This document shows positions 36,765-56,370 of a DNA stretch of 64,000 nt, in pieces. The DNA lies in assembly GCA_964602685.1 (NCBI GenBank), contig CAZRSQ010000002.1, positions 4,217 to 68,216 on the forward strand. The letters are read 5' to 3'. The notes beneath the pieces were generated by a model. The model was not told the origin of the DNA and did no database searches. It saw only the letters and a program-made list of their open reading frames with translations. How positions within the stretch are numbered: position 1 is the first letter of the stretch; every line of letters begins with the position of its first letter. Position numbers and translations under genes: made by a program. This DNA comes from an uncultured Kofleriaceae bacterium (GTDB lineage Bacteria; Myxococcota_A; Polyangia; Haliangiales; Haliangiaceae).

Positions 36765-37558
36765 CGTCGTTCTGGTTCTGCAGCCTGTACTACGCGCGCT
36801 CGCTGCGCGACCACGAGGACCTGGCGAGCCGCGCCGCTGGCTTGTTGAACACCCCGTCCATGCGCGCTTTCCGGCGGGTGGCGACCAGTAAGAACGGTCG
36901 CGAGACCGAGTACGGCCGCAACTCGCCCGAGTTGCTTCTGAAGCACCTGCAGCGCCCCGACGCGCACGCGGTCTGGCTGGACTCGGGCCGCTCGGGCAAA
37001 CTCGAATCCCACGGCTGGATCACGATCGCCCTGGGCTACAAGCCCGACGCCGACATCCTGGCCACGATGCGGGCGAACTTCGTGGTGCCCTACGTCGCCG
37101 ACGAGCGCGAGGCGGTGCTCGATGTCTTCTGTGGGCTGGCCGAGATCCTCGACGCGGCCTACGGCGCGACGTCGGTCGAGCCCTCGTTCGACACTGCGAG
37201 CAACGCCGCAGTCGCGTCCCGGCCGTCCGCCGCCGATGCTCCGACCTACACCGTGATGACCGAGGACCGGATCCGCTACCGCAACGCCCCGGCGTACCTC
37301 CGCAACCAGATCCATCACAGCATCGGCGGCCCGGAGTGGGGCACCTTCCTCGGCCCGGGCCATCTCGCCCGGCTCCCGCCCGATACGCTGGCGTCCGGTG
37401 CCTTTCATCAGGTGCGGCCGCTCGCGCACGGCGGCGCGTTTCTCCGCCTGTCCGAGGACCCCATGGACGCGCAGACGGACGCGATTCTTGGCATGGTCGC
37501 TCGCGCCCGTGCCGCCCTTGAGCCCATCGTCATGGACGTCAGCTCGGTCAGGATCTGA
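36761..37558 (+). CDS. Hypothetical protein, candidate cognate immunity protein
   Basis: GTG 36761 overlaps the upstream stop (GTGA). The 265-aa product (..GRNSPELLLKHLQRPDAHAVWLDSGRSGKLESHGWITIALGYKP..) has normal composition. Confidence 0.6.
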   Translation: MTSFWFCSLYYARSLRDHEDLASRAAGLLNTPSMRAFRRVATSKNGRETEYGRNSPELLLKHLQRPDAHAVWLDSGRSGKLESHGWITIALGYKPDADILATMRANFVVPYVADEREAVLDVFCGLAEILDAAYGATSVEPSFDTASNAAVASRPSAADAPTYTVMTEDRIRYRNAPAYLRNQIHHSIGGPEWGTFLGPGHLARLPPDTLASGAFHQVRPLAHGGAFLRLSEDPMDAQTDAILGMVARARAALEPIVMDVSSVRI

Positions 37559-37718
37559 AGCAGAACGCAGGAGCGCTTGCTCGTCAGACGTGAGCGCGAT
37601 CGAGCGGCCGGGCTGGGCGCTCGCGGTTGAGCAGCTATCGCGAGACTCAGTTCTCCAAGGCCAAGAAGGCCCAGGACCACTGCAAAGAGGTGCTCGACTA
37701 CAAGAAGGACAAGAAGCT

Positions 37719-38210
37719 GTGCAAGTAGAGACGACGCAGACGCCGGAGGAGCTCGTGCGTGAGATCCACGCGGCGTTCGATGATGTGCCCATGCCGTCGC
37801 GCATCGACGACATGCTCATGCCGGCGTACCGGGGCGATGACGAGGCCGTGGAGCTGGCCGCGGAGTTCGTGGGCAAGCCGTGGCAGGAGATCCCGGTGCA
37901 GCGGCTCATGTTCCACCGCGAGTTCCTCGCGTGCATGAGCGCGGCTGGGTACCGAGCGGTCTTACCCGCCTACCTCGTGGCCAGCGTCATCGAAAGCCCG
38001 GAGGCCAAGGAGTACCGCGGCGACATACTCGGCTACATGCTCACGACCCTGAAGGCGTGGCCGTATCAGAGCGAGGCAACCCGCGCAGTGACACCCGAGC
38101 GGTTGTCGGGCCTCGACCCCGCGCAACGATCGGCCGTGGCCAAGGTCCTCCGCTATCTGGTCGAGCTCTGGGGCTCGGAGAAGGCCGCGGCGATCCTGAG
38201 CGACTGGTGA
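37719..38210 (+). CDS. Small hypothetical protein (immunity-like)
   Basis: In-frame GTG at 37719 gives VQVETTQTPEELVREIHAAFDDVPMP...WQEIPVQRLMFHREFLACMSAAGYRAVLPAYLVASV. The start is uncertain. Confidence 0.55.
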   Translation: MQVETTQTPEELVREIHAAFDDVPMPSRIDDMLMPAYRGDDEAVELAAEFVGKPWQEIPVQRLMFHREFLACMSAAGYRAVLPAYLVASVIESPEAKEYRGDILGYMLTTLKAWPYQSEATRAVTPERLSGLDPAQRSAVAKVLRYLVELWGSEKAAAILSDW

Positions 38211-43924: not shown

Positions 43925-46900
43925 CAACGTTCGCCTCTCTCTGCACTAGTAGCGGCGTTACGACGGCCTCCTCCTCCGCGCCCGCTGCTGCCGGAGGCCC
44001 CAGGTGCTTCCAGCAGGCTGCTTAGGGCTGACTTCACTGCGGGCGAGGTACGCTCTCGCACTAGCTCTTCGATGCTGCGGGTGGGCGTCTTACGTGCCGT
44101 CCACTTGCCATCGGTGCCCTCGACCCAGAACACGTCCTCGAGGTCGTGCGCAATAGCGAGACTACGATCCGTGGCGCATTTCGGGACGACTCGCTCAGGC
44201 CAGAGGTGCATCGCGACATGGGCCCAGTCGTACGTCCCCTCAGCGAGGATGTCCCAGGTGGCCTTCAGCTCCTTCTGCCAGGGCTTGCAGTGCGGGACTA
44301 GTCGCCAAAGCGGCGCGAAGCTAAGGACGACGCCGTCTTCGAGGTTCGGGTTCCAGAGCGGAGCGACTCGCTTCACTTCTTCCAGGAACGCGCGCAGCTC
44401 CTCGACTAGGTTCTCCTGCACGGCCAAGTCCTTGCGTTGTGCGGCCGTTGCCTTCTCGCGCGCCTCACTCATCATCGAGGCAAGGCGCCGCTCTTCGTGT
44501 GCAAGCTTGCCTCGCTCGCCGCCAACGTAGTCGTTCTGGACGCGGAAGAGCGTATCCTTGCTGAACGAGTGGATGTAAAGCCAAACAGAGTAGCTCGCCG
44601 ACGGCGTAGCGAGTTGCCAGTAAATCGGTGCCTTGCGGCGACTCTTGCTGTACATCCGAATGTGTAGCGGGAAGAACTCCTTGGCGAGCCACGTGCGCAG
44701 GTCGTCACGCACCGGCGCTTGAACACGCTCGGCAAGCCTCAGAACACGCGTCGCGAGGTCATCCGGGTGCCCATCGTCCGTGACGAGAAGCTCCGGTGCG
44801 AGCGGTTGCTCCGCGCGCGGGAACATGGCCGGCGAGCGATCAGAGAGCGGCTCAAATGGGTCGTCCCCCGAGCACGGCACACGTTCTCCCGTTGCGACGC
44901 GTGTGTCGAAGCGCGCAAAGCACGCACCGACAAGCCACGAAACAAGGGCGACATTATCGGCGAGGCCTGCCCCCTCCTCGTCTAGCTCATCCTCCATGTC
45001 ACCGATAGGTGCCGATTCATGGTCTGACCGCACGGCTGGAGACGTTTCAGCGAACGCGGCCTCAATGATGGTCCGGTCTTCGCTGCTGATCGCGTATAGC
45101 TCAAAAAGCATGTCTTCGATTCTCGCCCGAAGCGCCACGCATTCCGTCTCCCGTTCACTGTCTGTCGCAGAAGGGTGCACAAACGCATGCGAGGTTTCGT
45201 TGTTGCGGTCCGAGTCGCGTCTAGCCGACCACACCTGCCTGGTGATAGCTGCAAGCGAACTGCTGTGGCTGCGAAGGTTCGGCGGGATCGGCGTGCGCTG
45301 CAGGACGCCAACTTCATATGAGCGCGCGGCTCCGCCGCGCTTAGAGTCCGCGGCGGCCAACTGCACCTCAACGAGATACCTGAAGACCTTGCTTGTAGTC
45401 GTGGCGAGCAGAGCCAGCAAGTACTCCGGCGCGTCCGCTGCCACAAACAGAGCAGGCCCCTTGTCGCCAAAAATGCACCCTCCTGGAAGCACTCGGAACG
45501 AGAGGGGGCTCTTCGTTCGGCGCGGCCAAGTCAGGCCCGGTCGAAAATACAGATGAGGATTGTGCAGCTCCGCCTTCCAGTGTGGGCTCCACCCCTTGGC
45601 TGCACGATTCTGCTCAACGTGAGCTTTGATCTCTCGGCCGTCGTTTCGCCATCGAACGTGCAGATGAACGTCGTCATAAAAGGGTGAGAATTTTCCACCT
45701 TTCGCGAACGAGAAGCTTGTCGCAAGGCCTTGAGGCACTTCCCACCATGCACGTACGAAGCGCACGTCATCGTTCGATGAGGCGCCACTAGCCACAATAC
45801 GGTCATCGCCGTGTAGAGCAGGAAAGGCGCGGAACAGACCTCGAATTGAGTCCGTGAGCCAGTACGCGAATGGCGAAAGCGGGATCGAGGAGAATGTCGA
45901 TGGGTCGACTTCGTACGTTGTCGCGCTTGTCGAATGCGACGAGAGCCCCAGGGCCGCGCGCAGTGCCGCGTTCTTATCGTTCGTTTCCTCTAAGGCACGA
46001 ATAATCATGGTGCGGCCGGCCGCGGCGGCCGGGGGACTGCGTTCCAAAACGTATGCGGCAGCTTCAACGAGCGCGGCGTCCATTACCCCAAATCCGAGAT
46101 CGCCAATTACGCGGGGGGGCGCGTCGGCCAACACGATCTCCTCTCTCCACTTCTGAAAACTCGAGAGGAAAAATCCTGTGCGCGACGTGATGGCACCAAG
46201 TCGGCCTCGCGCTGACAGCAGTTCGATTCCGCGCTCCACGAAAGCGGCGTAGACGTCGTTCTTTGTCCGCGGGTAGGCGTTCTCGAAACTCTTCTTCGCA
46301 CGCGCGCTGCCGGCGCCGAACGGCGGATTCATCAGCACTACGTCGAACCTCTTCTCGGCAACACCAAGCAGTGCTACGCCGTGCGCCGCATCGTCGACAA
46401 ACAGGCGGCGGCGCGTGCTTGTGCGCCCGGCAACATCGTCAACGAAGCGTGCGAGCGCTGTGCGAATGCACTCCTCGCGCGTTTGGAAGAGATTCCCCGT
46501 CTCACCACGCTTCGGCGAGCGGGACACAAGCGTCTCCACCCGGAGAAGCAACCCGAGATCACCCGCAAGGTTCAGCGAACCAACCAGACTCATGAACAAC
46601 CGCCCAAGCTCCGCGTCACCCAAGTTCGCGATGAATTCTCTCGCAAGGTTATCGTCGGCGACGAGAGGCTCCGCCACAACGATATTGGAGCGGCGGATCG
46701 GCGTTCTCCCGCCGCGGCCGACCCCGAAATCTCGGTACGCTTTCTGCGCACGCATCCACACGGCGAGCTGAGCAATCTGCGCACATCGAGGGTCGATGTC
46801 TACCCCATAAAGATTGTGCGCAAGGATGAGGCTCGGCACGACAGCTCGAAATTCGTTGGTGTTCGGATAGTCCTCGGCGAGAGTTCGGCCAGTGGTCTCG

Positions 46901-47856
46901 CTCTTTGGCGCCGCTGGATCCCCGTGCGCTTCGACGTAGATCGCGAGCAGAAGATCAAAGGCGTACAGGAGGAAGTGTCCGCTACCACATGCAGGGTCGA
47001 GCACACGAAGGTCACGCGGGTCCTTGAGTGCGTAGGGAGAGAACTCCTCATTAGGCTTCCGCACCATGTACTCGCACTTCTCGGCGAGAACCGTCTTGGT
47101 GCCGCGCATCTCGTACCAGATGCGCCCGAGCGTGTTGTCGGTGAGGAACTGGACGACGTAGCGGGGCGTGAAGAACTGGTTGCGCACCGCGAGTTCGCGG
47201 CTGTTGCGCGGCGCCTGGCTCTCCTCACGCATCTTCTTCCGCTCGTCCTGGCCGTTGAAGAACTGATAGACCCAGCCGATGGTCTCGTCTTCGGCCCACA
47301 CGCGCGCGAGCTCTATTGCGTTCAGGACCTCAAGAAGCTGATCAAACGTCGCGCGCTTCGGCCAGAGCACGCTCGACGGATCCCGTCGGTCGAAGAGGAC
47401 CTTCACCTCCGTCGAAAGCTCGTCGAAGAGCGACTCAATGTAGAGCCGGTAGCCAGCGCCGTCGGGGAGAAGCGGGAGGCCCGGAGCCATACCGCAGAAC
47501 TCGCGATAACCCGCGGACTGCTCGCCCTTCGTGATGCACTCCTGCACCAGCTCGCGGGCCTCCAGCATCTTCAGCGCTACGAAGCGATTCAGCGTCGTGA
47601 AGGCGGCGTCGCGCAGGTAGTCCGCGACCGACTCACCAGCAGTCATACCTGCCGCACGCTTGTGCTCGATGGCGGCGACGATGCGCTCGCGCTGGAAGGC
47701 CTGGCGAGCGGACAGGTGGCGCCCCGCCTTCGCGGCCACCTTGCCGTCGCGATGCACGTCGAAGTCGCCCTCGAGCTGCGCGGCGAAGTCCTCTTCCAGC
47801 AGCTTGCGAGCACGCTGGGTGGCGCGCTCGATGTCGTTCCGCGTCTCCTTGTCCAC
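43924..47856 (-). CDS. pglX: BREX PglX N6-adenine DNA methyltransferase
   Basis: The roughly 1310-aa product has AdoMet motif I VLDPACGSGHFL and motif IV VVLMNPPFG, and its size and position are typical of PglX. I prefer GTG 47856 as the start; it overlaps the upstream TAG by 1 nt. The track start at 47931 would overlap the upstream gene by 76 nt. Confidence 0.9.
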   Translation of the reverse strand: MDKETRNDIERATQRARKLLEEDFAAQLEGDFDVHRDGKVAAKAGRHLSARQAFQRERIVAAIEHKRAAGMTAGESVADYLRDAAFTTLNRFVALKMLEARELVQECITKGEQSAGYREFCGMAPGLPLLPDGAGYRLYIESLFDELSTEVKVLFDRRDPSSVLWPKRATFDQLLEVLNAIELARVWAEDETIGWVYQFFNGQDERKKMREESQAPRNSRELAVRNQFFTPRYVVQFLTDNTLGRIWYEMRGTKTVLAEKCEYMVRKPNEEFSPYALKDPRDLRVLDPACGSGHFLLYAFDLLLAIYVEAHGDPAAPKSETTGRTLAEDYPNTNEFRAVVPSLILAHNLYGVDIDPRCAQIAQLAVWMRAQKAYRDFGVGRGGRTPIRRSNIVVAEPLVADDNLAREFIANLGDAELGRLFMSLVGSLNLAGDLGLLLRVETLVSRSPKRGETGNLFQTREECIRTALARFVDDVAGRTSTRRRLFVDDAAHGVALLGVAEKRFDVVLMNPPFGAGSARAKKSFENAYPRTKNDVYAAFVERGIELLSARGRLGAITSRTGFFLSSFQKWREEIVLADAPPRVIGDLGFGVMDAALVEAAAYVLERSPPAAAAGRTMIIRALEETNDKNAALRAALGLSSHSTSATTYEVDPSTFSSIPLSPFAYWLTDSIRGLFRAFPALHGDDRIVASGASSNDDVRFVRAWWEVPQGLATSFSFAKGGKFSPFYDDVHLHVRWRNDGREIKAHVEQNRAAKGWSPHWKAELHNPHLYFRPGLTWPRRTKSPLSFRVLPGGCIFGDKGPALFVAADAPEYLLALLATTTSKVFRYLVEVQLAAADSKRGGAARSYEVGVLQRTPIPPNLRSHSSSLAAITRQVWSARRDSDRNNETSHAFVHPSATDSERETECVALRARIEDMLFELYAISSEDRTIIEAAFAETSPAVRSDHESAPIGDMEDELDEEGAGLADNVALVSWLVGACFARFDTRVATGERVPCSGDDPFEPLSDRSPAMFPRAEQPLAPELLVTDDGHPDDLATRVLRLAERVQAPVRDDLRTWLAKEFFPLHIRMYSKSRRKAPIYWQLATPSASYSVWLYIHSFSKDTLFRVQNDYVGGERGKLAHEERRLASMMSEAREKATAAQRKDLAVQENLVEELRAFLEEVKRVAPLWNPNLEDGVVLSFAPLWRLVPHCKPWQKELKATWDILAEGTYDWAHVAMHLWPERVVPKCATDRSLAIAHDLEDVFWVEGTDGKWTARKTPTRSIEELVRERTSPAVKSALSSLLEAPGASGSSGRGGGGRRNAATSAERGER

Positions 47857-48947
47857 TAGGCCCTCCCGCCCTGCGCTGAGGGCGCGGCGCCTGCCGCCGC
47901 AAGCGCTTCCGAGTACCGCTCCGCAAACCACCGCACGCGAGCGACGCCCTCGGACGGCGCGTCCGAGAGGGGCGCGTGAAGGTGCCGGCCGATCTTCGGT
48001 AGGAGCAAGACGAGCAGCAGGTCCGAGGAATCGGGGTCGAGCGCGAAGCGCGCGTCGCCCTGCGCTTGCAGACGCTGCGTGAACTCGTCGATCGCGGCGC
48101 GTCCGGCGCTCGTCATCGGTTCGGGCAGGCTGAGCAGGCGACGGATGCTGTCGGGGTTCACGAGCCGGATGGGCTGCAACGACTCGAACAGCGGACCTGC
48201 GTTGCGGCCGAAGTCGACGCCGGGGAACCAGCCGCGCAAGCGCGCGACGAAGTCGAAGACGTCCGTGAACGCACCGCCCTGCTCGCGCTGGCGGCGCTCG
48301 GTTTCCGCGAACAGGCTGGCGATCGTGCCGTCGCCCATGCGGGTCGACTGGCCGAGCATCACCAGGAAGTTCCGTTCCTGCTCCGACAGCGTCCCGGCGG
48401 CCGGCTTGTAGCCCAGGTCATGTTCGATCTCGTTCCAGACGTGCGCCATCATGCTGCACACCTGCACCTCGCACGGCACGTCCATGACGTTCGCGTACGT
48501 GCCCACGCCGTCGGCGCCGGTCAGGAACACCTCGATGTGGCTGGCCCGGTAGAAGTTGGTCGGGTCATCGCGATTCTTGTCCTTGCGCTCGTGGGTGGGG
48601 CGCTGGCCGCTCCCGTCGACGAAGCGCTTGCTCACGAGCTGCACGACCTGCTCCTCGTGACGTTGCTCGTACGTGGCGACGCGCACCGCCGCGAGGTCGC
48701 GGATCTGGTCGAAGACCGCGTCGACGTCCGGGATCGACTTCTTGCCGGTCGCCGCGAAGCGCCGCAGCTTGCCTTCCAGGCTCTTCGGGCTCTTGGCCCG
48801 CGACGTCACCTGCGCACGGATCGCGTTGCCCTCCACGATCTCGGCGCGACAGATCTCCGCGACGCGCGCCGCAAGCTTGAGGTAGCGGTCGTACTCGCGG
48901 TGGTACCGCTGGACGGCTCGCTTGATGGTGTCGTCGGAGATCGCCAT
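47856..48947 (-). CDS. RelA/SpoT-domain nucleotide pyrophosphokinase (small-alarmone-synthetase / toxSAS-like) with about 150-aa C-terminal extension
   Basis: Synthetase-fold motifs are present: RAKSPKSLEGKL, IRDLAAVRVATY, FYRASHIEVFL and CEVQVCSMMAHVWNEIEHDLGYKP. The gene lies between brxC (6 nt upstream) and pglX (1-nt overlap). Confidence 0.8.
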   Translation of the reverse strand: MAISDDTIKRAVQRYHREYDRYLKLAARVAEICRAEIVEGNAIRAQVTSRAKSPKSLEGKLRRFAATGKKSIPDVDAVFDQIRDLAAVRVATYEQRHEEQVVQLVSKRFVDGSGQRPTHERKDKNRDDPTNFYRASHIEVFLTGADGVGTYANVMDVPCEVQVCSMMAHVWNEIEHDLGYKPAAGTLSEQERNFLVMLGQSTRMGDGTIASLFAETERRQREQGGAFTDVFDFVARLRGWFPGVDFGRNAGPLFESLQPIRLVNPDSIRRLLSLPEPMTSAGRAAIDEFTQRLQAQGDARFALDPDSSDLLLVLLLPKIGRHLHAPLSDAPSEGVARVRWFAERYSEALAAAGAAPSAQGGRA

Positions 48948-48953
48948 GGCGGC

Positions 48954-51900
48954 CTACTGGATGAGGACCTTCTTGCCGGCACCGATGAGCCGAGCGCACG
49001 CCTCGCGCACGCCGTCGAGCGCAGCGTCGAGTTGCTCCTCGGACTCGATCCCGCCGGCGAAGTAGCTCGCCACGTTCACCGTGACGACGCGCTCGCCGTC
49101 GATGATGCGACTGAGCTCGGCGACGGCGGCGCGGAGGCGGCCTTCGCATGCATCGCGGTCGGCGCGCAGCTGCGGGATCGGGACGGCATGCGCATCGCGC
49201 TGCCGCCCGCGCTCGAACGGGTCGGCGAGCCGGCGTCGCTGGACGTCGTCGAGGTCGGCCCAGCCGGCGGCCTTCGTCAGCCGCTCGTACGCGTCGGCGT
49301 AGGCGGCGACGCGGGCGTCCAGGGCCACGTCGAAGCGCCGCTGGTATTCGGCCTCGAGCGCCCGGGCATGGCGGTCGATGGCGGGGAGCTCCTTGAAGAA
49401 GGTCTCGCGCGCCAGCAGGTCATCGAGCTCGGCGGCCTTGGTCCGCAGCTCGTCCGCGATGTCCGCCTCGGTGCGCAGGAACGACCACAGAGCCCCCATG
49501 ACGTGCCGCGCGCGGTCGAGATCGCTCAACCGGGGGTCCGTGAGGCTGTGCTCGAGCTGCCCCGCGCGCTGGATGGCGTCCTTGATGGCGCGGTGGCTGG
49601 CGTTGAACGTGGCGATCGCGTTGTCGTCCGACCCGCGCAAGATCGCCTTCATCTGGCCGAGGGCCGCCTCGAGCGGCGTGCCACCCGGGAGGCGGTGGGC
49701 GGTCAGCGTCGACAGGGCCGAGGCGACCGTGTCCTCCTGGTGCGCGACCGCCTTGCGCAGCTCGGCCACGATCGCGGCCGCGTTCAGCTCGCGCACCTCG
49801 GTGCCGAACGTGTCGCGGAACGCCTCCGAGGCCTTGATGAGCTCCTCGAACTCGATGCCCTTCTTGGGCCGGAAGGAGGCCTGGCGGAACAGGTTGTTGT
49901 TCGAGAACGTGTCGCGGGCCTCGACGCCGGTGACCGCGTCGAGGGTCTGGCCCTTGCTGGTCGCCTCGATCTTGCCCGCGCGCAGGAGCGACAGGACGAG
50001 TAGCCGCACCGCCTCGAAGTCCCAGCCGAACGGCTCCTTGGCGAACTCGTCGGCGAGGTAGCGGCCGCTGGCGGTGTCGCCGTAGTTGGCGCGCTCGTCG
50101 AGGCGGTCGAGCACTTCCTTGAGCGGGCCGCTCTCGACGCGGAAGACCGTCTTGCCCTTCTCGTCGCGGAGCAGGCCGAGGCTGCTGAAGACGGGCGGCA
50201 AGCCCTGGAGGTTCTCGGCGGTGAAGAGGGCGTCGGTGCCCTTCTTCACGTCGTTGGCCTTGGCGGCGGCTTCCTTGTAGCGGTCGAAGACCTCGGGCAG
50301 GACCTGGCCCAGGATCTCGGCGGCGGTCTTGCCGACGTCGACGGCCTTGTCGGTGGGGCTGCGGTCGTTGCCGCGGAAGAACACGCGCCCCGAGAGGCAG
50401 GCGGCGCGCAGGAGCCGCCGCAGCTCGTCGCCGTGGCGGCGCTGGCGGACCCGCTCCTCGGCGATGAGCGCCGGGGTGTCCTCGCCTTTGGTCTCGCGCT
50501 CCTTGCGGGCCAGCATCTCCTTCGAGCGGAAGAGCTGCACCGTCTCGCGATCGATGGCGTCGCTGAGCGCGACGGCCCAGAAGACGTGCTTGCGCTCCTG
50601 CTGGCTGCGGGTGCGCAGCTCGGACGCGATCGTGTTGAACTCCTTGCCGTCCTCGGCGAGGTGGAGCTGGAACATCATGTCGCCGCTGGTGACCTCGCGC
50701 CCGTGGATCGCCAGGCCCGCCTTGAAGGTCTTGGTGTCGAACAACGTGTGCGCGGGCTGCGGCTGCCAGAAGGAGGCCAGGACCTCCGAGTACAGGCGGT
50801 GCGAGTCGCCGGGTTTCGGGTCGATGCCGTTGCGCAGCCGTTCCCAGTCGTCCTCGGCCGGCGTCGGGATGCGGTAACCGTCGTCGCCCTGGCGGACCTT
50901 GTGCGTCGCCTCGAGCTCGCGCAGCGCTTCCTTCACCGAGGCGAGCTGGGAGTCGCCAGCGACGGTCCCGTGGAGCGCCGCGGCGATGTTCTCGGCGCTG
51001 CGGTGCACACTCTTGACGTACTGGAGCAGGCAGATGACCTTGGCGACCGGTTGCGCCAGCGGGTGGACGAGCTCCTTGGAGATGGCGGCGATCTTCGCGC
51101 GCACCTCGGAGCCGATGTTGCCCTCGACGAGGTCGTAGACCTGATCGAGGCGGACCAGGGCGCCGACCGACGCGTCGGCGAGGTTGACGGCCGGGTTGAT
51201 CAGGAGCTGCTGCGCGAGCTTGATGATCGTCCGGTTGGCGCCGCCGACGTGCTTGCTGGCGCCGCCCTGGGTGCGCAGCCCGGAGACGACCTGGATGATC
51301 AGGTCGATCTGGTAGGGCAGCAGGGGATAGAGGTCGATGAAGGCTTCGCGCGAGAGCTCCGGCAGCCGGATCTCGGCCGTCAGGCGGGTGTGCTCGCTGA
51401 GGCGGCCGCGGTTGTCGTCGAAGAGCTTGCCCAGGGCCGCCTGTGCGGCGGCATTCTTCGACAACACGCGGCGGCTCGTGACCTCGGAGATGTCCGACGG
51501 TTCGAGGTGGACCTGGAGCGGGAAGCGGTCCATGAGCCGGGCGAGCTCGATCTTCTTGTCGTCGAGGCCGCTGACCAGCTCGCCGAGCTTCTCCTGCGAG
51601 GTGACGACGACCCAGTGCTTGCCGCGACCCTTGACCCCGAGGCTCTGCACGACCGCCTGCAGGTCGAGCATCTTCTGCACGTCGCGGGCGACGAACTGGC
51701 CCACCTCGTCGATGACGAACATCAGGGCACGCCCCGGCCGGCGGCGCTTCATGAGCTCGTTCGCGCGCTCGGCGAGCTTGCCGGGGGTGATGTCGGCCTT
51801 GTTCTTGACCGCCTTCACCCACGAGTCCGCCATCGGGTAGGTGTCGGCGTCGAGCGCGTGCATGACCCGGCTCGCCTCGCTCAGCGCGAAGGCGACCTTG

Positions 51901-52499
51901 CCCTTCTCCTTCGCCCATTCCTTCTTGTGGAGTTTCCGGTACTGCTCCTCGAACCGATCGAGCTGGCCCTTCTCCTCGAGGCCGATCTCCAGCTCGGAGA
52001 GGTCGAGGTCCTTGGCGTAGCCGAGGCTCTGGAGGAAGAGCCCGTACATGATCTCGGTGAGCGACTGGTTGCCGCTGCGGATGCCGCGGTCCGTCGAGAC
52101 GTCGAAGATGACCGCGTGCGTCGGGATCTGCTCGTTGATGGCCTTGAGGAGGACCTGCAGCTTCTTGTCGCCCGCGCGCTGCGTGAAGCGTGCGGCGGCG
52201 GACTCACCCGCCACGGTCCGATTCTCGACGGCGAGGCCGAGCATCTTGGCGAAGCTCGACTTACCGGAGCCGAAGAACCCGGAGACCCAGATCGCGATGC
52301 CCTCGTGGGGCTTGTTGGGGGTCTCGCGGTAGCTCTCGAGGACGTGGGTGTAGTGATTGCGGATCGCGTCCGTGACGACGTACTCGCTGATCTCGTCGCG
52401 GATCACTTCCTCGTCGGTCTGATCGACCTTGATGACCTCTTCGATGCGACGGTGGATGTCGTTGGCGAAGAGCGACTTGATGGGCTGGGGCGTCGTCAT
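48954..52499 (-). CDS. brxC: BREX BrxC/PglY P-loop ATPase
   Basis: 1181 aa with Walker A GFFGSGKSSFAKMLG near the N-terminus and Walker B LMFVIDEVGQF. Size and position are typical of BrxC. Confidence 0.9.
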   Translation of the reverse strand: MTTPQPIKSLFANDIHRRIEEVIKVDQTDEEVIRDEISEYVVTDAIRNHYTHVLESYRETPNKPHEGIAIWVSGFFGSGKSSFAKMLGLAVENRTVAGESAAARFTQRAGDKKLQVLLKAINEQIPTHAVIFDVSTDRGIRSGNQSLTEIMYGLFLQSLGYAKDLDLSELEIGLEEKGQLDRFEEQYRKLHKKEWAKEKGKVAFALSEASRVMHALDADTYPMADSWVKAVKNKADITPGKLAERANELMKRRRPGRALMFVIDEVGQFVARDVQKMLDLQAVVQSLGVKGRGKHWVVVTSQEKLGELVSGLDDKKIELARLMDRFPLQVHLEPSDISEVTSRRVLSKNAAAQAALGKLFDDNRGRLSEHTRLTAEIRLPELSREAFIDLYPLLPYQIDLIIQVVSGLRTQGGASKHVGGANRTIIKLAQQLLINPAVNLADASVGALVRLDQVYDLVEGNIGSEVRAKIAAISKELVHPLAQPVAKVICLLQYVKSVHRSAENIAAALHGTVAGDSQLASVKEALRELEATHKVRQGDDGYRIPTPAEDDWERLRNGIDPKPGDSHRLYSEVLASFWQPQPAHTLFDTKTFKAGLAIHGREVTSGDMMFQLHLAEDGKEFNTIASELRTRSQQERKHVFWAVALSDAIDRETVQLFRSKEMLARKERETKGEDTPALIAEERVRQRRHGDELRRLLRAACLSGRVFFRGNDRSPTDKAVDVGKTAAEILGQVLPEVFDRYKEAAAKANDVKKGTDALFTAENLQGLPPVFSSLGLLRDEKGKTVFRVESGPLKEVLDRLDERANYGDTASGRYLADEFAKEPFGWDFEAVRLLVLSLLRAGKIEATSKGQTLDAVTGVEARDTFSNNNLFRQASFRPKKGIEFEELIKASEAFRDTFGTEVRELNAAAIVAELRKAVAHQEDTVASALSTLTAHRLPGGTPLEAALGQMKAILRGSDDNAIATFNASHRAIKDAIQRAGQLEHSLTDPRLSDLDRARHVMGALWSFLRTEADIADELRTKAAELDDLLARETFFKELPAIDRHARALEAEYQRRFDVALDARVAAYADAYERLTKAAGWADLDDVQRRRLADPFERGRQRDAHAVPIPQLRADRDACEGRLRAAVAELSRIIDGERVVTVNVASYFAGGIESEEQLDAALDGVREACARLIGAGKKVLIQ

Positions 52500-52512: not shown

Positions 52513-53091
52513 TCAGAAGATCTTCGGCCGGTAGTTGTGCTCGGCGTCGAGGACGCCCATGAACTTCAGGCCCGCCGCGCCGTCGAGCGTGCCGGGGTAG
52601 AAGAGGACGGTGGGCACGGTCACGCGCCCCTTGAGCTGCTCGAGGAGCGAGAACGTGCGGTAGACCGGGAACAGGGCACCGGTCCGCATGATGAAGACCG
52701 TGTCGAGCCGTGGGTCGCCGTCCTCGGGGAGCTGCGAGGCGACGAGGTCGACGAGCGGCGCATCCTCCGAGAGGACGGCATGGATGGTCTCGACCACCGT
52801 GGCAGTGCCGTGCTCGCGCTCGGCGTCGAACCATTCTTGCAGCGGACGTTGCAGGCGCATCGCGGCATCGAGGCACTGGGCGAGCGAGACGCGGCGCGGC
52901 GTCCGCTTGCCGGCCTGCTCCAGCCGGGTGCACAGCATCGTGACCTCGCGCCGCAGCTCGAACTCGTCCTCCGGGTCGTAGCGGAAGATGGCGTACGGCA
53001 TGTCGTGGTACGCGCTGAGGCGCGTCCGCGGATCCTCCAGGAGCAGGATGGGCTCGAGGTCTTGCCGGAGCCGCTGCTGCAGGTCGTTCAT
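52513..53091 (-). CDS. brxB: BREX BrxB (DUF1788)
   Basis: 192-aa protein lying between brxA and brxC. Its ATG overlaps the brxA stop (ATGA). The sequence (PYAIFRYDPEDEFELRREV...VLFYPGTLDG) is consistent with DUF1788. Confidence 0.8.
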   Translation of the reverse strand: MNDLQQRLRQDLEPILLLEDPRTRLSAYHDMPYAIFRYDPEDEFELRREVTMLCTRLEQAGKRTPRRVSLAQCLDAAMRLQRPLQEWFDAEREHGTATVVETIHAVLSEDAPLVDLVASQLPEDGDPRLDTVFIMRTGALFPVYRTFSLLEQLKGRVTVPTVLFYPGTLDGAAGLKFMGVLDAEHNYRPKIF

Positions 53092-53873
53092 GCCACCATC
53101 CTCTCGGCGTACTCACGCGTCGACGCGCACGGCAGCGAGAGCTGCACGAGGCTGCCCGCGACCTGATAGTCGAGCTTGCGGAACTGGTGGAGCCGCAGGA
53201 GCTCGCGCTCGACGTCGGCGGGACGCATCAGGAACATGCGCCATTCGGGAGACGTGACGAGCTTCCCGGGGGCGTGGTCATGCTCCAGCATCGAGTGGAG
53301 CAGATAGAGGAACGCCGGTTCGGGAAGGTGATACGACGCGAACTCCTTCACGACGGAGCCGCGCAGCAGGCCGAAGTCGACGGCGAGCTTCAGCAGGCCG
53401 GCGGCGACCCGCTTGGTCGTCTCTTCCGACCACGCGTGTTCGGTCTTGCCCCCGCGCTTGCCGATGCCCTGGAGGAAGGTGAGCAGGTCGTCGGCGTGGA
53501 CGCGGAACGCGCCGGCGTCGTAGCTGGGGAAGAGCCAGTTCACGAGGAAGTCGCGCAGGAGGAACTCGTCGCGCGTCATGTGCCAGAGCATGAGCGGCTT
53601 CCAGGTGTCGAGATCGCAGCCGTGCTTGGCGAGGATCACGAGCGCGCGGTCGCGGTCATCGGGCTCGAACCGGCGGTTGAACGCCTTGGCGACGTCGCGG
53701 AGCCAGGTGTCGGAGCCCGCGCCGATGAAGTTCTCCGCCCGCAGGCGATCGAGGTTCTCGCGCTTCGACCGGGCAAGGTCCCAGGCCGCGAAGACCGCGT
53801 AGGTCTCCTCGATCATCGAGCCCTTGACGATCGTGAACGAGGACACGACGTCGGCGCGCCGGCCGAGCTTCAC
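53088..53873 (-). CDS. brxA: BREX BrxA (DUF1819)
   Basis: The C-terminal roughly 260 aa of the 462-aa track ORF have normal composition (FTIVKGSMIEETYAVFAAWDL...DFLVNWLFPSY...). GTG 53873 overlaps the stop of the upstream gene (GTGA). An alternative start is ATG 53816. The upstream extension is Arg-rich artefact. Confidence 0.75.
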   Translation of the reverse strand: MKLGRRADVVSSFTIVKGSMIEETYAVFAAWDLARSKRENLDRLRAENFIGAGSDTWLRDVAKAFNRRFEPDDRDRALVILAKHGCDLDTWKPLMLWHMTRDEFLLRDFLVNWLFPSYDAGAFRVHADDLLTFLQGIGKRGGKTEHAWSEETTKRVAAGLLKLAVDFGLLRGSVVKEFASYHLPEPAFLYLLHSMLEHDHAPGKLVTSPEWRMFLMRPADVERELLRLHQFRKLDYQVAGSLVQLSLPCASTREYAERMVA

Positions 53874-54436
53874 AGGTCGGCCCTTCGCGCGTACGGGACG
53901 GCCAGCGCGCCCGGTTCGCCGCGAGCGAAGCCGAGCGCGAGCAGGGCGATGTCCTCGTTGCGATCGGCGAACGTGCCGGGCAACGGGACGGCACGGTTCT
54001 CGGCCGAGCGGCGCAACTTGCCGTACGCCTCGACGTTGCGATCGGTGACGAGGTCGAACGACCGCAGCAGCGCGACGAGATCCGTGCCGGCGAGGCCTTC
54101 GATTCGCTCGAAGAATGGGCTCCAGTCGGAGGCGTGGTCGAGCCAGTGCTCCCAGCGCGCGTCGAACTCCTCCTCGAGGGCCTCGGGGAGGCGCCACAGC
54201 GTCACGCTGCCGGGAGGCTCGAACACTTCCGAACATCGATGGGCGGCGACGGCGAAGACGCTGCGGGCCTGCGCGAAGCGATGCGTGCGCGGGAACCCGC
54301 GGCGGAGCGCGGCAGCGCCGAGCCGGCCGAGCTGGCCCTTCGTGTTCCACCACTTCGCGAGGTCCATCTCGCCGAACCGGGCGACGACCACGCGCAGCTT
54401 GAGGAGGCGGTCGAGGTCGATCGATGGAGCGGGCAT
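53870..54436 (-). CDS. Small protein at the head of the BREX operon (BrxE-like; family name from memory)
   Basis: ATG 54436 gives MPAPSIDLDRLLKLRVVVARFGEMDLAKWWNTKGQLGRLG... 188 aa, translationally coupled to brxA. Confidence 0.5.
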   Translation of the reverse strand: MPAPSIDLDRLLKLRVVVARFGEMDLAKWWNTKGQLGRLGAAALRRGFPRTHRFAQARSVFAVAAHRCSEVFEPPGSVTLWRLPEALEEEFDARWEHWLDHASDWSPFFERIEGLAGTDLVALLRSFDLVTDRNVEAYGKLRRSAENRAVPLPGTFADRNEDIALLALGFARGEPGALAVPYARRADL

Positions 54437-54666
54437 GATGGGCTGCTGGGGCTCGCGACCTGAGCCGGCCTGGCATCCCGCGCCAGCCCCGCGTCGCAGT
54501 GGACGTGGCAGTAAAACCCGATGCCGGTTCTCACGCAAGGCCTGGGAAGCATAGGTACTTTCGGCAGATCACCCTTGTCGCGTGAACGGGCGCCTACGTG
54601 CGCGAAGATACTGTCGGTTCGGCGGCAGATCCCCGTCAAGATCGAACGGGAGTGGCCTGGTCGCGT

Positions 54667-55767: not shown

Positions 55768-56370
55768 ATGACCTCGAGAGCCGTCGTGGTGTTGCTGTGT
55801 GTCGTGATGGGATGTACTTCGTCGGATGACGATGATGATGGCGCTGCGGTGTGCGGCAATGCCGTGTGCGAGGCGGGTGAGAGCTCGTTGACGTGCCCTG
55901 GTGACTGCGAGGGAACAGCGACCTGCAGTCCTGCGAATCCTGGTTCATGCGGTGGCGAGACGATCTGCATCAACCAGCAGTGCGTCCCGGCATTCGGTCG
56001 CAACTACGTCTTCACGGTGACCAACGGCGTCTTCACGCAGCGCGATGACACCGGGGCGACGTGGGATGCCGCAGGAGGACTACCGGATCCACTGGTGATC
56101 CTCACCATCAACGGTGTCGACTTCACCACGCCCGCAGTGGCCGATACCCTCACTCCGACCTGGAACTTCGTCACGCCGCCCGTGCTCGTGCCTGGCGGAA
56201 CGGTGCTGCTCATCGCAGTCTATGATGAGGATTTGACTGCGAACGATCTGGGATGGGCGTGTCAGGCGAACCCACTGACCGCCGACTTCCTTCGCGGTGG
56301 CGGGGTGTCCTGCAATGGCCAGGGTGCGCTCAATGGAGCCACGGTGACCGTTGCGATCCGTCCGAACTGA
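55768..56370 (+). CDS. Lipoprotein with Cys-rich module and C2-like domain
   Basis: Lipobox MTSRAVVVLLCVVMGC. Cys-rich module CGNAVCEAGESSLTCPGDC. C2-like signature DPLVILTINGVDFTTPAVADTLTPTWNF...LLIAVYDEDLTANDLGW. Confidence 0.6.
   Translation: MTSRAVVVLLCVVMGCTSSDDDDDGAAVCGNAVCEAGESSLTCPGDCEGTATCSPANPGSCGGETICINQQCVPAFGRNYVFTVTNGVFTQRDDTGATWDAAGGLPDPLVILTINGVDFTTPAVADTLTPTWNFVTPPVLVPGGTVLLIAVYDEDLTANDLGWACQANPLTADFLRGGGVSCNGQGALNGATVTVAIRPN

Follow-up and report, generated by a model that had tools for sequence, protein, structure and literature searches.

A small alarmone synthetase-like gene between brxC and pglX: an optional accessory of one type 1 BREX subclade with recurrent ties to modification-based defence

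What does a putative pyrophosphokinase do in the middle of a phage defence operon? This question is raised by a stretch of 64,000 nucleotides (nt) from an uncultured Kofleriaceae bacterium, hereafter called the window, in which a gene for a small alarmone synthetase (SAS)-like protein lies between brxC and pglX of a type 1 bacteriophage exclusion (BREX) operon. The question is of some weight, as the mechanism by which BREX stops phage replication is still unresolved. The gene turned out to be an optional accessory that one BREX-1 subclade carries in the variable stretch on either side of pglX. It encodes an enzyme that is predicted to be active and that carries a putative regulatory domain at its C-terminus.

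The gene between brxC and pglX and its product

An earlier note on this DNA, made from the sequence alone, had described a gene of 363 amino acids that begins 6 nt after brxC and whose TAG stop codon overlaps the GTG start codon of pglX by 1 nt. This description is accurate, and it can be added that the gene lies on the minus strand. The gene, its junctions and the domains of its product are as follows.

47856 to 48947, minus strand: SAS-like gene, 363 amino acids, stop codon included (open reading frame (ORF) with translation, PF04607, ratio of nonsynonymous to synonymous substitution rates (dN/dS))
48948 to 48956, minus strand: stop codon TAG of brxC (48956-48954) and 6-nt spacer GCCGCC (48953-48948) before the ATG of the SAS gene
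47854 to 47867, minus strand: GGGAGGG (47867-47861), stop codon TAG of the SAS gene (47858-47856) and start codon GTG of pglX (47856-47854)
48282 to 48947, minus strand: N-terminal RelQ/RelP-like synthetase domain, residues 1 to about 222 (AlphaFold2 model, Foldseek)
48405 to 48803, minus strand: Pfam RelA_SpoT match (PF04607), residues 49-181
47883 to 48281, minus strand: C-terminal six-helix domain, residues about 223-355 (secondary structure and confidence of the model)

The start codon ATG of the SAS gene occupies positions 48947-48945, and base 47856 is at the same time the last base of its stop codon and the first base of the pglX start codon. The GGGAGGG run resembles a Shine-Dalgarno sequence and is located 5-11 nt 5' of the GTG. 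Since the ATG of pglX in homologous loci, where the protein begins with M-D-K-D/E-T-R-N, aligns exactly with this GTG, it is the real start of pglX, as the earlier note had preferred. No terminator-like sites were found on the minus strand at the junctions brxC/SAS and SAS/pglX. The SAS gene is co-transcribed with brxC and pglX, and the spacing of the junctions is compatible with translational coupling, in agreement with the tight, co-oriented arrangement within a type 1 BREX operon that had been proposed. The ORF is real, because seven homologue pairs gave dN/dS values of 0.02-0.16 for either half of the protein, and the gene is under strong purifying selection. Its G+C content is 0.68. There is no antitoxin-sized ORF next to it, and the distances to brxC and pglX leave no room for one.

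The protein belongs to the RelA/SpoT synthetase superfamily and is of the small alarmone synthetase type with regard to Pfam score, fold, residues and domain content. The search with PF04607 that had been suggested as a check resulted in a match with E=1.5e-12 and 48.2 bits (cutoff 27). This is the sole Pfam match in the 363 amino acids; an HD hydrolase domain and TGS/ACT regulatory domains are absent, as in a short RelA/SpoT homologue (RSH). The motifs RAKSPKSLEGKL, YRASHIEVFL and EVQVCSMMAHVWNEIEHDLGYKP, already quoted in the earlier note, are present in the translation. Within the PF04607 region we recognized R50, K52, S56 and K60 (RxKxxxSxxxK), D84, R89, Y133-R134-x-x-H137, E160-x-Q162 and H169...E173..H176..Y180-K181. 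Among 62 family representatives, which are 27-75% identical to the window protein and all of which match PF04607 (62/62), the residues R50, K52, K60, D84, R89, Y133, H137, E160, Q162, E173, H176, Y180 and D309 are invariant, as they also are in 44 copies embedded in BREX. In the N-terminal helix, the basic residues R14, R17 and R21 are invariant as well. In FaRel2, substitution of D90 (Mg2+ coordination) or Y128 (acceptor stacking) abolishes activity and toxicity (10.1101/2021.04.30.441581); judged by their position in the motifs, D84 and Y133 would be expected to correspond to these two residues. Because the active-site residues are invariant and the dN/dS values are that low, the enzyme is predicted to be active and catalytically competent.

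A structure model was computed with AlphaFold2 on an alignment of 134 sequences, and 120 more distant relatives were gathered by profile search. The model (predicted local distance difference test score 93.7, predicted template modelling score 0.89) comprises an N-terminal domain with a long N-terminal helix (residues 5-41) and a further long helix, at residues 189-222, that closes the RelQ-like core. In a Foldseek comparison with the PDB, the top ranks were taken by RelP (6ewz), 2be3 and RelQ (5dec), with E of about 2e-7, target-normalised template modelling (TM) scores of 0.68-0.77 and 16-21% identity over about 215 alignment columns. Catalytic fragments of long RSHs ranked lower, and CapRel (9erv, 7ztb) was matched with E of about 2.5e-5, a root-mean-square deviation (rmsd) of about 21 Å, 11% identity and TM scores of 0.29-0.38 (whole chain). 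The family profile, when compared with all PDB sequences, matched RelQ/RelP-type chains only (E about 2e-7), and CapRel, FaRel2, Tas1 and long RSHs gave no match in these sequences even at E≤10. RelQ and RelP are thus the only relatives by profile among PDB sequences and the first by fold, and with the distance to CapRel and the lack of an antitoxin ORF the label toxSAS/CapRel-like that had been given to the gene has no specific support.

The C-terminal extension mentioned in the earlier note corresponds to an all-helical domain, whose six helices were modelled with high confidence. It contains the motifs F227-x-D-V-x-D-F233-V-A-R-x-R and S-S-D309-L-L-L, in which D309, F227 and F233 are invariant. 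No Pfam family was found for this domain among the 62 members and no sequence match in the PDB with the family profile, and the Foldseek matches of the whole chain in PDB and BFVD were dominated by the N-terminal domain; a homology to the antitoxin/sensor domain of CapRel was accordingly not found in these searches. The C-terminal domain diverges faster than the N-terminal one, and in one relative (L021) the two domains are 42% and 68% identical to those of the window, respectively, at 84% identity of BrxC. The conserved motifs suggest that the domain binds a conserved ligand or partner rather than being a fast-evolving sensor of phage proteins. Longer members of the family (P0200, P0175, P0183, P0122 and others) were considered as informative fusions and dismissed, since they contain PF04607 only.

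Occurrence in BREX operons

Relatives were collected with family peptide patterns from one genome per species, which yielded 67 loci, and the BREX proteins of the window were mapped to these by tblastn. All relatives with at least 51% identity (33 loci) are located in BrxE-BrxA-BrxB-BrxC...PglZ-BrxL cassettes, the BrxC of which is 68-86% identical to that of the window. Their hosts include Myxococcota, Acidobacteriota, Gemmatimonadota, Actinomycetota and Alpha-, Beta- and Gammaproteobacteria. Protein matches with 81-86% identity were obtained from Corallococcus, Burkholderia cenocepacia, Bradyrhizobium and Steroidobacter, and identities across such distant hosts argue for a horizontal spread of SAS. 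As far as the sequences tell, the pattern indicates that SAS spreads with the cassette and is not a vertically inherited housekeeping gene.

This bears on the idea that the window gene encodes an SAS of the common stress response, is merely a passenger in the operon and plays no part in defence. Its fold and motifs, which are most like those of RelQ and RelP, and its database annotation as GTP pyrophosphokinase would agree with such an origin. Nevertheless, we regard it as very improbable, as the gene is found inside mobile defence cassettes across many phyla, with 70-89% identity between copies from Myxococcota, Acidobacteriota, Alpha-, Beta- and Gammaproteobacteria, as the extra domain is always present and as the slots it occupies are those used by defence cargo.

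There are two such slots. In 14 of the 33 genome loci the order is brxC-SAS-pglX, as in the window, and in the other 19 it is pglX-SAS-pglZ. In the former arrangement, 5-20 nt lie upstream of SAS and the downstream junctions range from -8 to +1 nt. SAS overlaps the downstream gene by 1-8 nt, and in the latter arrangement there is mostly an ATGA-type overlap of 4 nt with pglZ. In a neighbour-joining tree the slot mostly follows the clade and has switched at least three times.

How regularly the BREX subclade carries the gene was evident from a metagenome scan anchored on the C-terminus of BrxC (BrxC at least about 63% identical), which returned 80 loci, 46 of them long enough to be scored. SAS is lacking in 29/46 loci (brxC-pglX-pglZ), whereas 9/46 have the order brxC-SAS-pglX and 8/46 the order brxC-pglX-SAS. 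With 17/46 loci carrying SAS and 63% being devoid of it, the gene is not a core gene of BREX type 1. It is instead a BREX-embedded accessory cargo, observed in 50 loci (33 genome and 17 metagenome loci) in two slots and always on the same strand. The earlier note had considered it an integral member of the operon; this view is not tenable, given the 17/46 loci, the occurrence on either side of pglX and the presence of other cargo in the same slots elsewhere. Its expectation of a recurrent association with BREX or other defence loci, on the other hand, proved correct (33 BREX and 26 Pbe loci among the 67 genome loci). Taken as a whole, what had been proposed on fold, catalytic residues and a recurrent link to defence has stood, and the assignment to CapRel-like toxSAS and the integral membership do not hold in the form given.

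The survey for insertions between brxC and pglX that had been called for detected SAS there in 14 genome and 9 metagenome loci. Other loci possess inserts of 1.0-2.0 kb at the brxC/pglX/pglZ junctions, and the brxC-pglX junction is occupied by Schlafen proteins (AlbA_2 and HATPase_c_4), a SIR2_2 protein or a DuOB protein (PADLOC candidate PDC-M45A). As these proteins replace SAS there, the junction behaves as a cargo hotspot. Inserts of this kind are located, for instance, at 11218-12897 in L106, 6262-7809 in L142, 1281-2300 in L090 and 6285-6983 in L100. In the same BREX subclade, the Septu pair PtuA (ATPase) and PtuB (HNH) lies between pglX and pglZ (L001, 14962-16946; L006, L020, L024, L028 and L077) or after pglZ (L109), and it occurs together with SAS in L001, L006, L020, L024 and L028.

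The distances between SAS proteins track those of BrxC (r 0.63-0.65) and PglZ (r 0.57-0.59) about as well as the core genes track each other. SAS has therefore long resided in this lineage of cassettes and is not an insert that is swapped often, and it is inherited mostly together with the BREX core. The variable element is PglX, which is 40-88% identical to that of the window and correlates with every other BREX gene at r 0.2-0.4 only. The body of pglX in the window (44000-47500) has a G+C content of 0.59-0.63, compared to 0.66-0.72 elsewhere in the operon. Because the identity of PglX is decoupled from that of the other genes and coincides with this dip in G+C, an exchange of the methyltransferase/specificity cassette of pglX by recombination between the conserved brxC and pglZ anchors is suggested.

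Two copies of SAS look decayed. In a Bryobacteraceae metagenome-assembled genome (MAG; L066, 9377-10237) only the first 79 codons are left (81% identical), adjoining a remnant of pglX and with neither pglZ nor brxL within 10 kb, and in L065 (9995-10920) the gene is split into two ORFs. A scan of viral contigs gave three loci, one of them with a whole BREX and SAS cassette. This contig (L074, IMGVR_UViG_3300026516_000156), which is classed as viral and carries the complete order BrxE-A-B-C-SAS-X-Z-L, may represent a BREX borne by a prophage or another element, or it may be misclassified. In the plasmid and phage databases no close SAS relative within BREX was found; the plasmid matches belong to the Pbe-type clade or to more distant proteins, no plasmid BrxC is more than 30% identical to that of the window, and the phage database contains one weak match to SAS.

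The remaining genes of the operon in the window are the following.

53870 to 54538, minus strand: BrxE-family gene (ORF; likely start ATG at 54436), NCBIfam BrxE_fam E=1.2e-46, residues 42-218
53088 to 53750, minus strand: brxA, at least 220 amino acids, true start probably further upstream, PADLOC BrxA PDLC02454 E=1.4e-94, profile positions 43-264
52513 to 53091, minus strand: brxB, 192 amino acids, PADLOC BrxB E=4.9e-57
48954 to 52499, minus strand: brxC, 1181 amino acids, NCBIfam BREX_BrxC E=2e-269, PADLOC PDLC02476 2181 bits
43924 to 47856, minus strand: pglX, 1310 amino acids from the GTG, NCBIfam BREX_1_MTaseX 621.7 bits
41372 to 43927, minus strand: pglZ, 851 amino acids, PADLOC PglZ PDLC02559 1337 bits
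39336 to 41369, minus strand: brxL, 677 amino acids, TIGR02653 E=1.6e-278

BrxE is ascribed in the literature to type 6 BREX. The BREX of the window is otherwise of type 1 (brxL is present, brxD and brxHI are not), yet it begins with a BrxE-family gene, and the best NCBIfam match of its PglZ is of the BREX-6 type, below the cutoff of that model. For BrxC, PglZ, BrxA and BrxB of this subclade, PADLOC contains dedicated, near-full-length models. The operon is flanked by ORFs at 37398-38210 and 55768-56370 (both plus strand), one for a DUF6714 protein and one for a small protein rich in Cys that matches a C2 domain; beyond these two domains, Pfam gave no match for the remaining large ORFs flanking the operon. 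No tRNA genes were found in the window.

Relatives outside BREX and the proposed role

Relatives with 42-50% identity are located outside BREX. In 26 loci, SAS of this sister clade is the first gene of CxC-ATPase/Pbe operons, which are linked to phosphorothioation, and is followed by genes for a Sigma70_r4 helix-turn-helix (HTH) protein of about 870 amino acids, PbeA (PLD/HKD and SF2 helicase, PADLOC E=3e-269), a small protein, the CxC/PbeC ABC ATPase and a DndE-like protein. The HTH protein (about 750-990 amino acids) always comes directly after SAS, and PMC10853773 does not list it as a component of Pbe/CxC. In L031 (10001-17838) SAS overlaps the next gene by 4 nt, and the same order is evident from the annotation of plasmid pRspNXC14a of Rhizobium sp. 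NXC14 (L072, 12001-20156). In about nine of the 26 loci the operon is adjoined by dndC, dndD or dndA, and dndE is among the neighbouring dnd genes in some loci. As a candidate for a partner of SAS that BREX and Pbe have in common, the HTH protein was rejected, since it showed no similarity to BrxE, BrxA or BrxB in BLASTP and hhalign; the family member P0200, which might have been a fusion with this protein, was likewise dismissed on comparison.

A third context is found in a Candidatus Kapaibacterium MAG (L060, 2614-12432), where SAS precedes a SNF2-family helicase (1092 amino acids) and an Eco57I/MmeI-type methyltransferase protein of 1761 amino acids; this locus may be akin to DISARM or to type ISP systems. 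A family member in a Binataceae MAG has a gene for a type IIG-like methylase 2.5 kb upstream of it. A few members occur in unrelated surroundings, for example beside sbcCD or near imuA-imuB-dnaE2. Because of the BREX, Pbe and SNF2/methylase contexts, the family has a strong but not exclusive link to defence based on DNA modification. One related RSH-domain protein has already been flagged as a defence candidate, as the Pbe-clade protein of L031 weakly matches the PADLOC candidate PDC-S33 (E=5.7e-5, residues 25-177, N-terminal domain only); the window protein does not match PDC-S33 at E≤0.01.

On this basis we propose that SAS is an accessory second-line effector, which its own C-terminal domain keeps silent and which would arrest growth by pyrophosphorylation on cue, a reading to which we assign roughly an even chance. 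In uninfected cells, the enzyme would be held inactive by the C-terminal domain, perhaps with the help of contacts to the defence complex. A phage cue, or the blocking of the modification-based system, might then trigger the transfer of pyrophosphate from ATP to a purine nucleotide, giving (p)ppGpp or (p)ppApp, or to the 3' ends of tRNA. Growth or translation would be arrested and the phage cycle not completed. This logic would resemble that of PrrC, the anticodon nuclease inside the EcoprrI type Ic restriction-modification locus. It would also resemble that of the fused CapRel (PMC9712102). The intact fold and active site, the purifying selection, the recurrence in BREX and Pbe, the location in cargo slots, the lack of a separate antitoxin gene and the precedents of PARIS and BrxU are in favour of the proposal; toxicity, trigger and substrate of the enzyme are putative.

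Several observations weigh against a second-line effector. The enzyme is nearer, by sequence and by fold, to the non-toxic housekeeping enzymes RelQ and RelP than to any validated toxSAS. Approximately 88% of the genome-scan loci (33 + 26 of 67) are BREX or Pbe loci and not miscellaneous islands, and this near-exclusive link to two or three systems, together with the correlation of about 0.6 with BrxC and PglZ, fits a functional wiring equally well. The motifs of the C-terminal domain (D309, F227, F233) are strictly conserved and not hypervariable, as those of a sensor of phage proteins might be. Finally, no model of PADLOC v2 matches the window protein.

Some of these observations fit a different explanation, in which the enzyme is a signalling arm that produces a nucleotide messenger (an alarmone) on command of BREX, CxC/Pbe or the SNF2-methylase system and thereby tunes the machinery or the replication and transcription of the host instead of killing it. 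The near confinement of the family to DNA-modification-based systems (including L060), a co-inheritance with BrxC and PglZ that equals that of the core genes among each other, the conserved motifs suggestive of a conserved partner or ligand, and the proximity to the genuine (p)ppGpp synthetases RelQ and RelP would all be explained in this way. We consider it unlikely, since the absence of SAS from 63% of the BREX loci of the same subclade implies that BREX functions without it, since no protein that could serve as partner was detected in both BREX and Pbe (the sigma-like HTH protein being unlike BrxE, BrxA and BrxB) and since no alarmone receptor is evident.

It is also conceivable, as a special case of the second-line effector, that the enzyme is latent on the BREX or Pbe complex and is freed or activated once this complex has been put out of action by an anti-restriction protein of the phage (a DNA mimic like Ocr or an S-adenosylmethionine lyase). 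PrrC in EcoprrI is the precedent for such a guard. SAS lies within operons of modification-dependent systems, is not accompanied by an antitoxin gene and adjoins pglX, the product of which is the target of Ocr (PMC11341690). However, one family would need to sense three unrelated complexes, and its neighbour in the Pbe loci is a different protein, so that we hold this form of the proposal to be quite improbable.

Least of all do we expect that the acceptor is the nucleic acid of the invader or a DNA precursor, which would mean that pyrophosphorylated 3' ends of DNA or primers, or modified dNTPs, aid the non-degradative block of replication that is typical of BREX and was proposed for Pbe. This is purely speculative and extremely improbable; we know of no RSH that modifies DNA, and SAS is optional in BREX. 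What agrees with it is that SAS is associated with systems acting on DNA, that the N-terminal helix carries the invariant basic residues R14, R17 and R21, and that RSH enzymes accept nucleotides or the 3'-OH of RNA (10.1101/2021.04.30.441581).

A broader view would unite some of these elements. The SAS family could be a dedicated nucleotide-pyrophosphorylation arm common to BREX, CxC/Pbe and SNF2-methylase systems, switched on through the C-terminal domain by their complexes or by phage inhibition. Were this true, the alarmone or pyrophosphorylated nucleic-acid end that it makes would be part of how phage replication is blocked without degradation, an effect that has so far lacked an explanation. 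We think that such a shared arm is rather improbable.

Irrespective of the exact role, one BREX-embedded cargo is now defined that belongs to a well-understood enzyme class, possesses an intact active site and carries a new, putatively regulatory C-terminal domain. The family is found repeatedly in modification-based defence systems of at least two kinds, perhaps three, and adds a candidate defence family that PADLOC v2 does not detect. With a size of about 1.1 kb the gene is a clonable test case for alarmone or tRNA pyrophosphorylation as a backup layer of restriction-like systems, and for a signal that couples the two.

Comparison with known systems

The best structural and the sole sequence-profile matches of the window protein are RelQ and RelP (SAS1/SAS2 of Firmicutes; PDB 5DEC, 6EWZ, 6FGK, 2BE3), with which it shares the synthetase motifs and the lack of a hydrolase domain. 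It differs from them by its low sequence identity (16-21%) and by the additional helical C-terminal domain of about 135 residues. Moreover, RelQ and RelP are encoded by chromosomal housekeeping genes, whereas the SAS gene of the window is embedded in defence operons and has spread horizontally.

The likeness to PrrC that we propose is one of arrangement, namely a latent effector that targets translation or metabolism and lies within a restriction-modification operon without an antitoxin of its own. The enzyme classes differ, and a guard role is hypothetical for SAS.

With the fused CapRelSJ46, a tRNA pyrophosphokinase acting in abortive infection, the window protein has in common that a single chain combines an N-terminal RSH synthetase with a C-terminal domain, that there is no antitoxin gene and that the context is one of defence. 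In contrast, the sequence identity is 11%, the rmsd is about 21 Å and there is no sequence-profile match, and the C-terminal domain of the window protein is all-helical with conserved motifs of its own. The toxSAS modules (FaRel, FaRel2, PhRel and PhRel2; PMC7229694) use an RSH synthetase domain as a growth-arresting effector, and SAS retains the residues expected to correspond to their catalytic Asp and Tyr. They differ from it in that SAS has no bicistronic or tricistronic toxin-antitoxin arrangement and neither an antitoxin nor a small alarmone hydrolase adjoining it; the homologous loci are equally tight.

A literature search for BREX, pglX or PglZ in connection with alarmone, toxSAS, small alarmone synthetase or ppGpp synthetase yielded no relevant paper. 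SpoT, ppGpp and pyrophosphokinase are not mentioned in the text and accessible supplements of the 2026 BREX survey (PMC12839542), nor are SpoT and ppGpp in the phosphorothioation survey (PMC10853773). That genes are embedded in BREX is itself well documented. Went et al. (PMC11341690) found genes between pglZ and pglX in about 7000 of about 9000 genomes; about 5000 of these inserts were recognized neither by DefenseFinder nor by PADLOC, and most embedded genes are uncharacterised. Characterised examples are PARIS (ariAB) in Salmonella and BrxU (GmrSD) in pEFER (PMC11341690, PMC8565348), and the 2026 survey catalogues Schlafen and nuclease auxiliaries (PMC12839542). Like the cargo of the PARIS/BrxU type, SAS is an optional accessory that lies on the same strand between BREX core genes, in slots that hold alternative cargo elsewhere. 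It differs from that cargo in being a pyrophosphokinase and not a nuclease or ATPase system. The enzyme class as well as BREX-embedded cargo were thus known already, and it is the architecture of SAS and its associations that appear to be undescribed.

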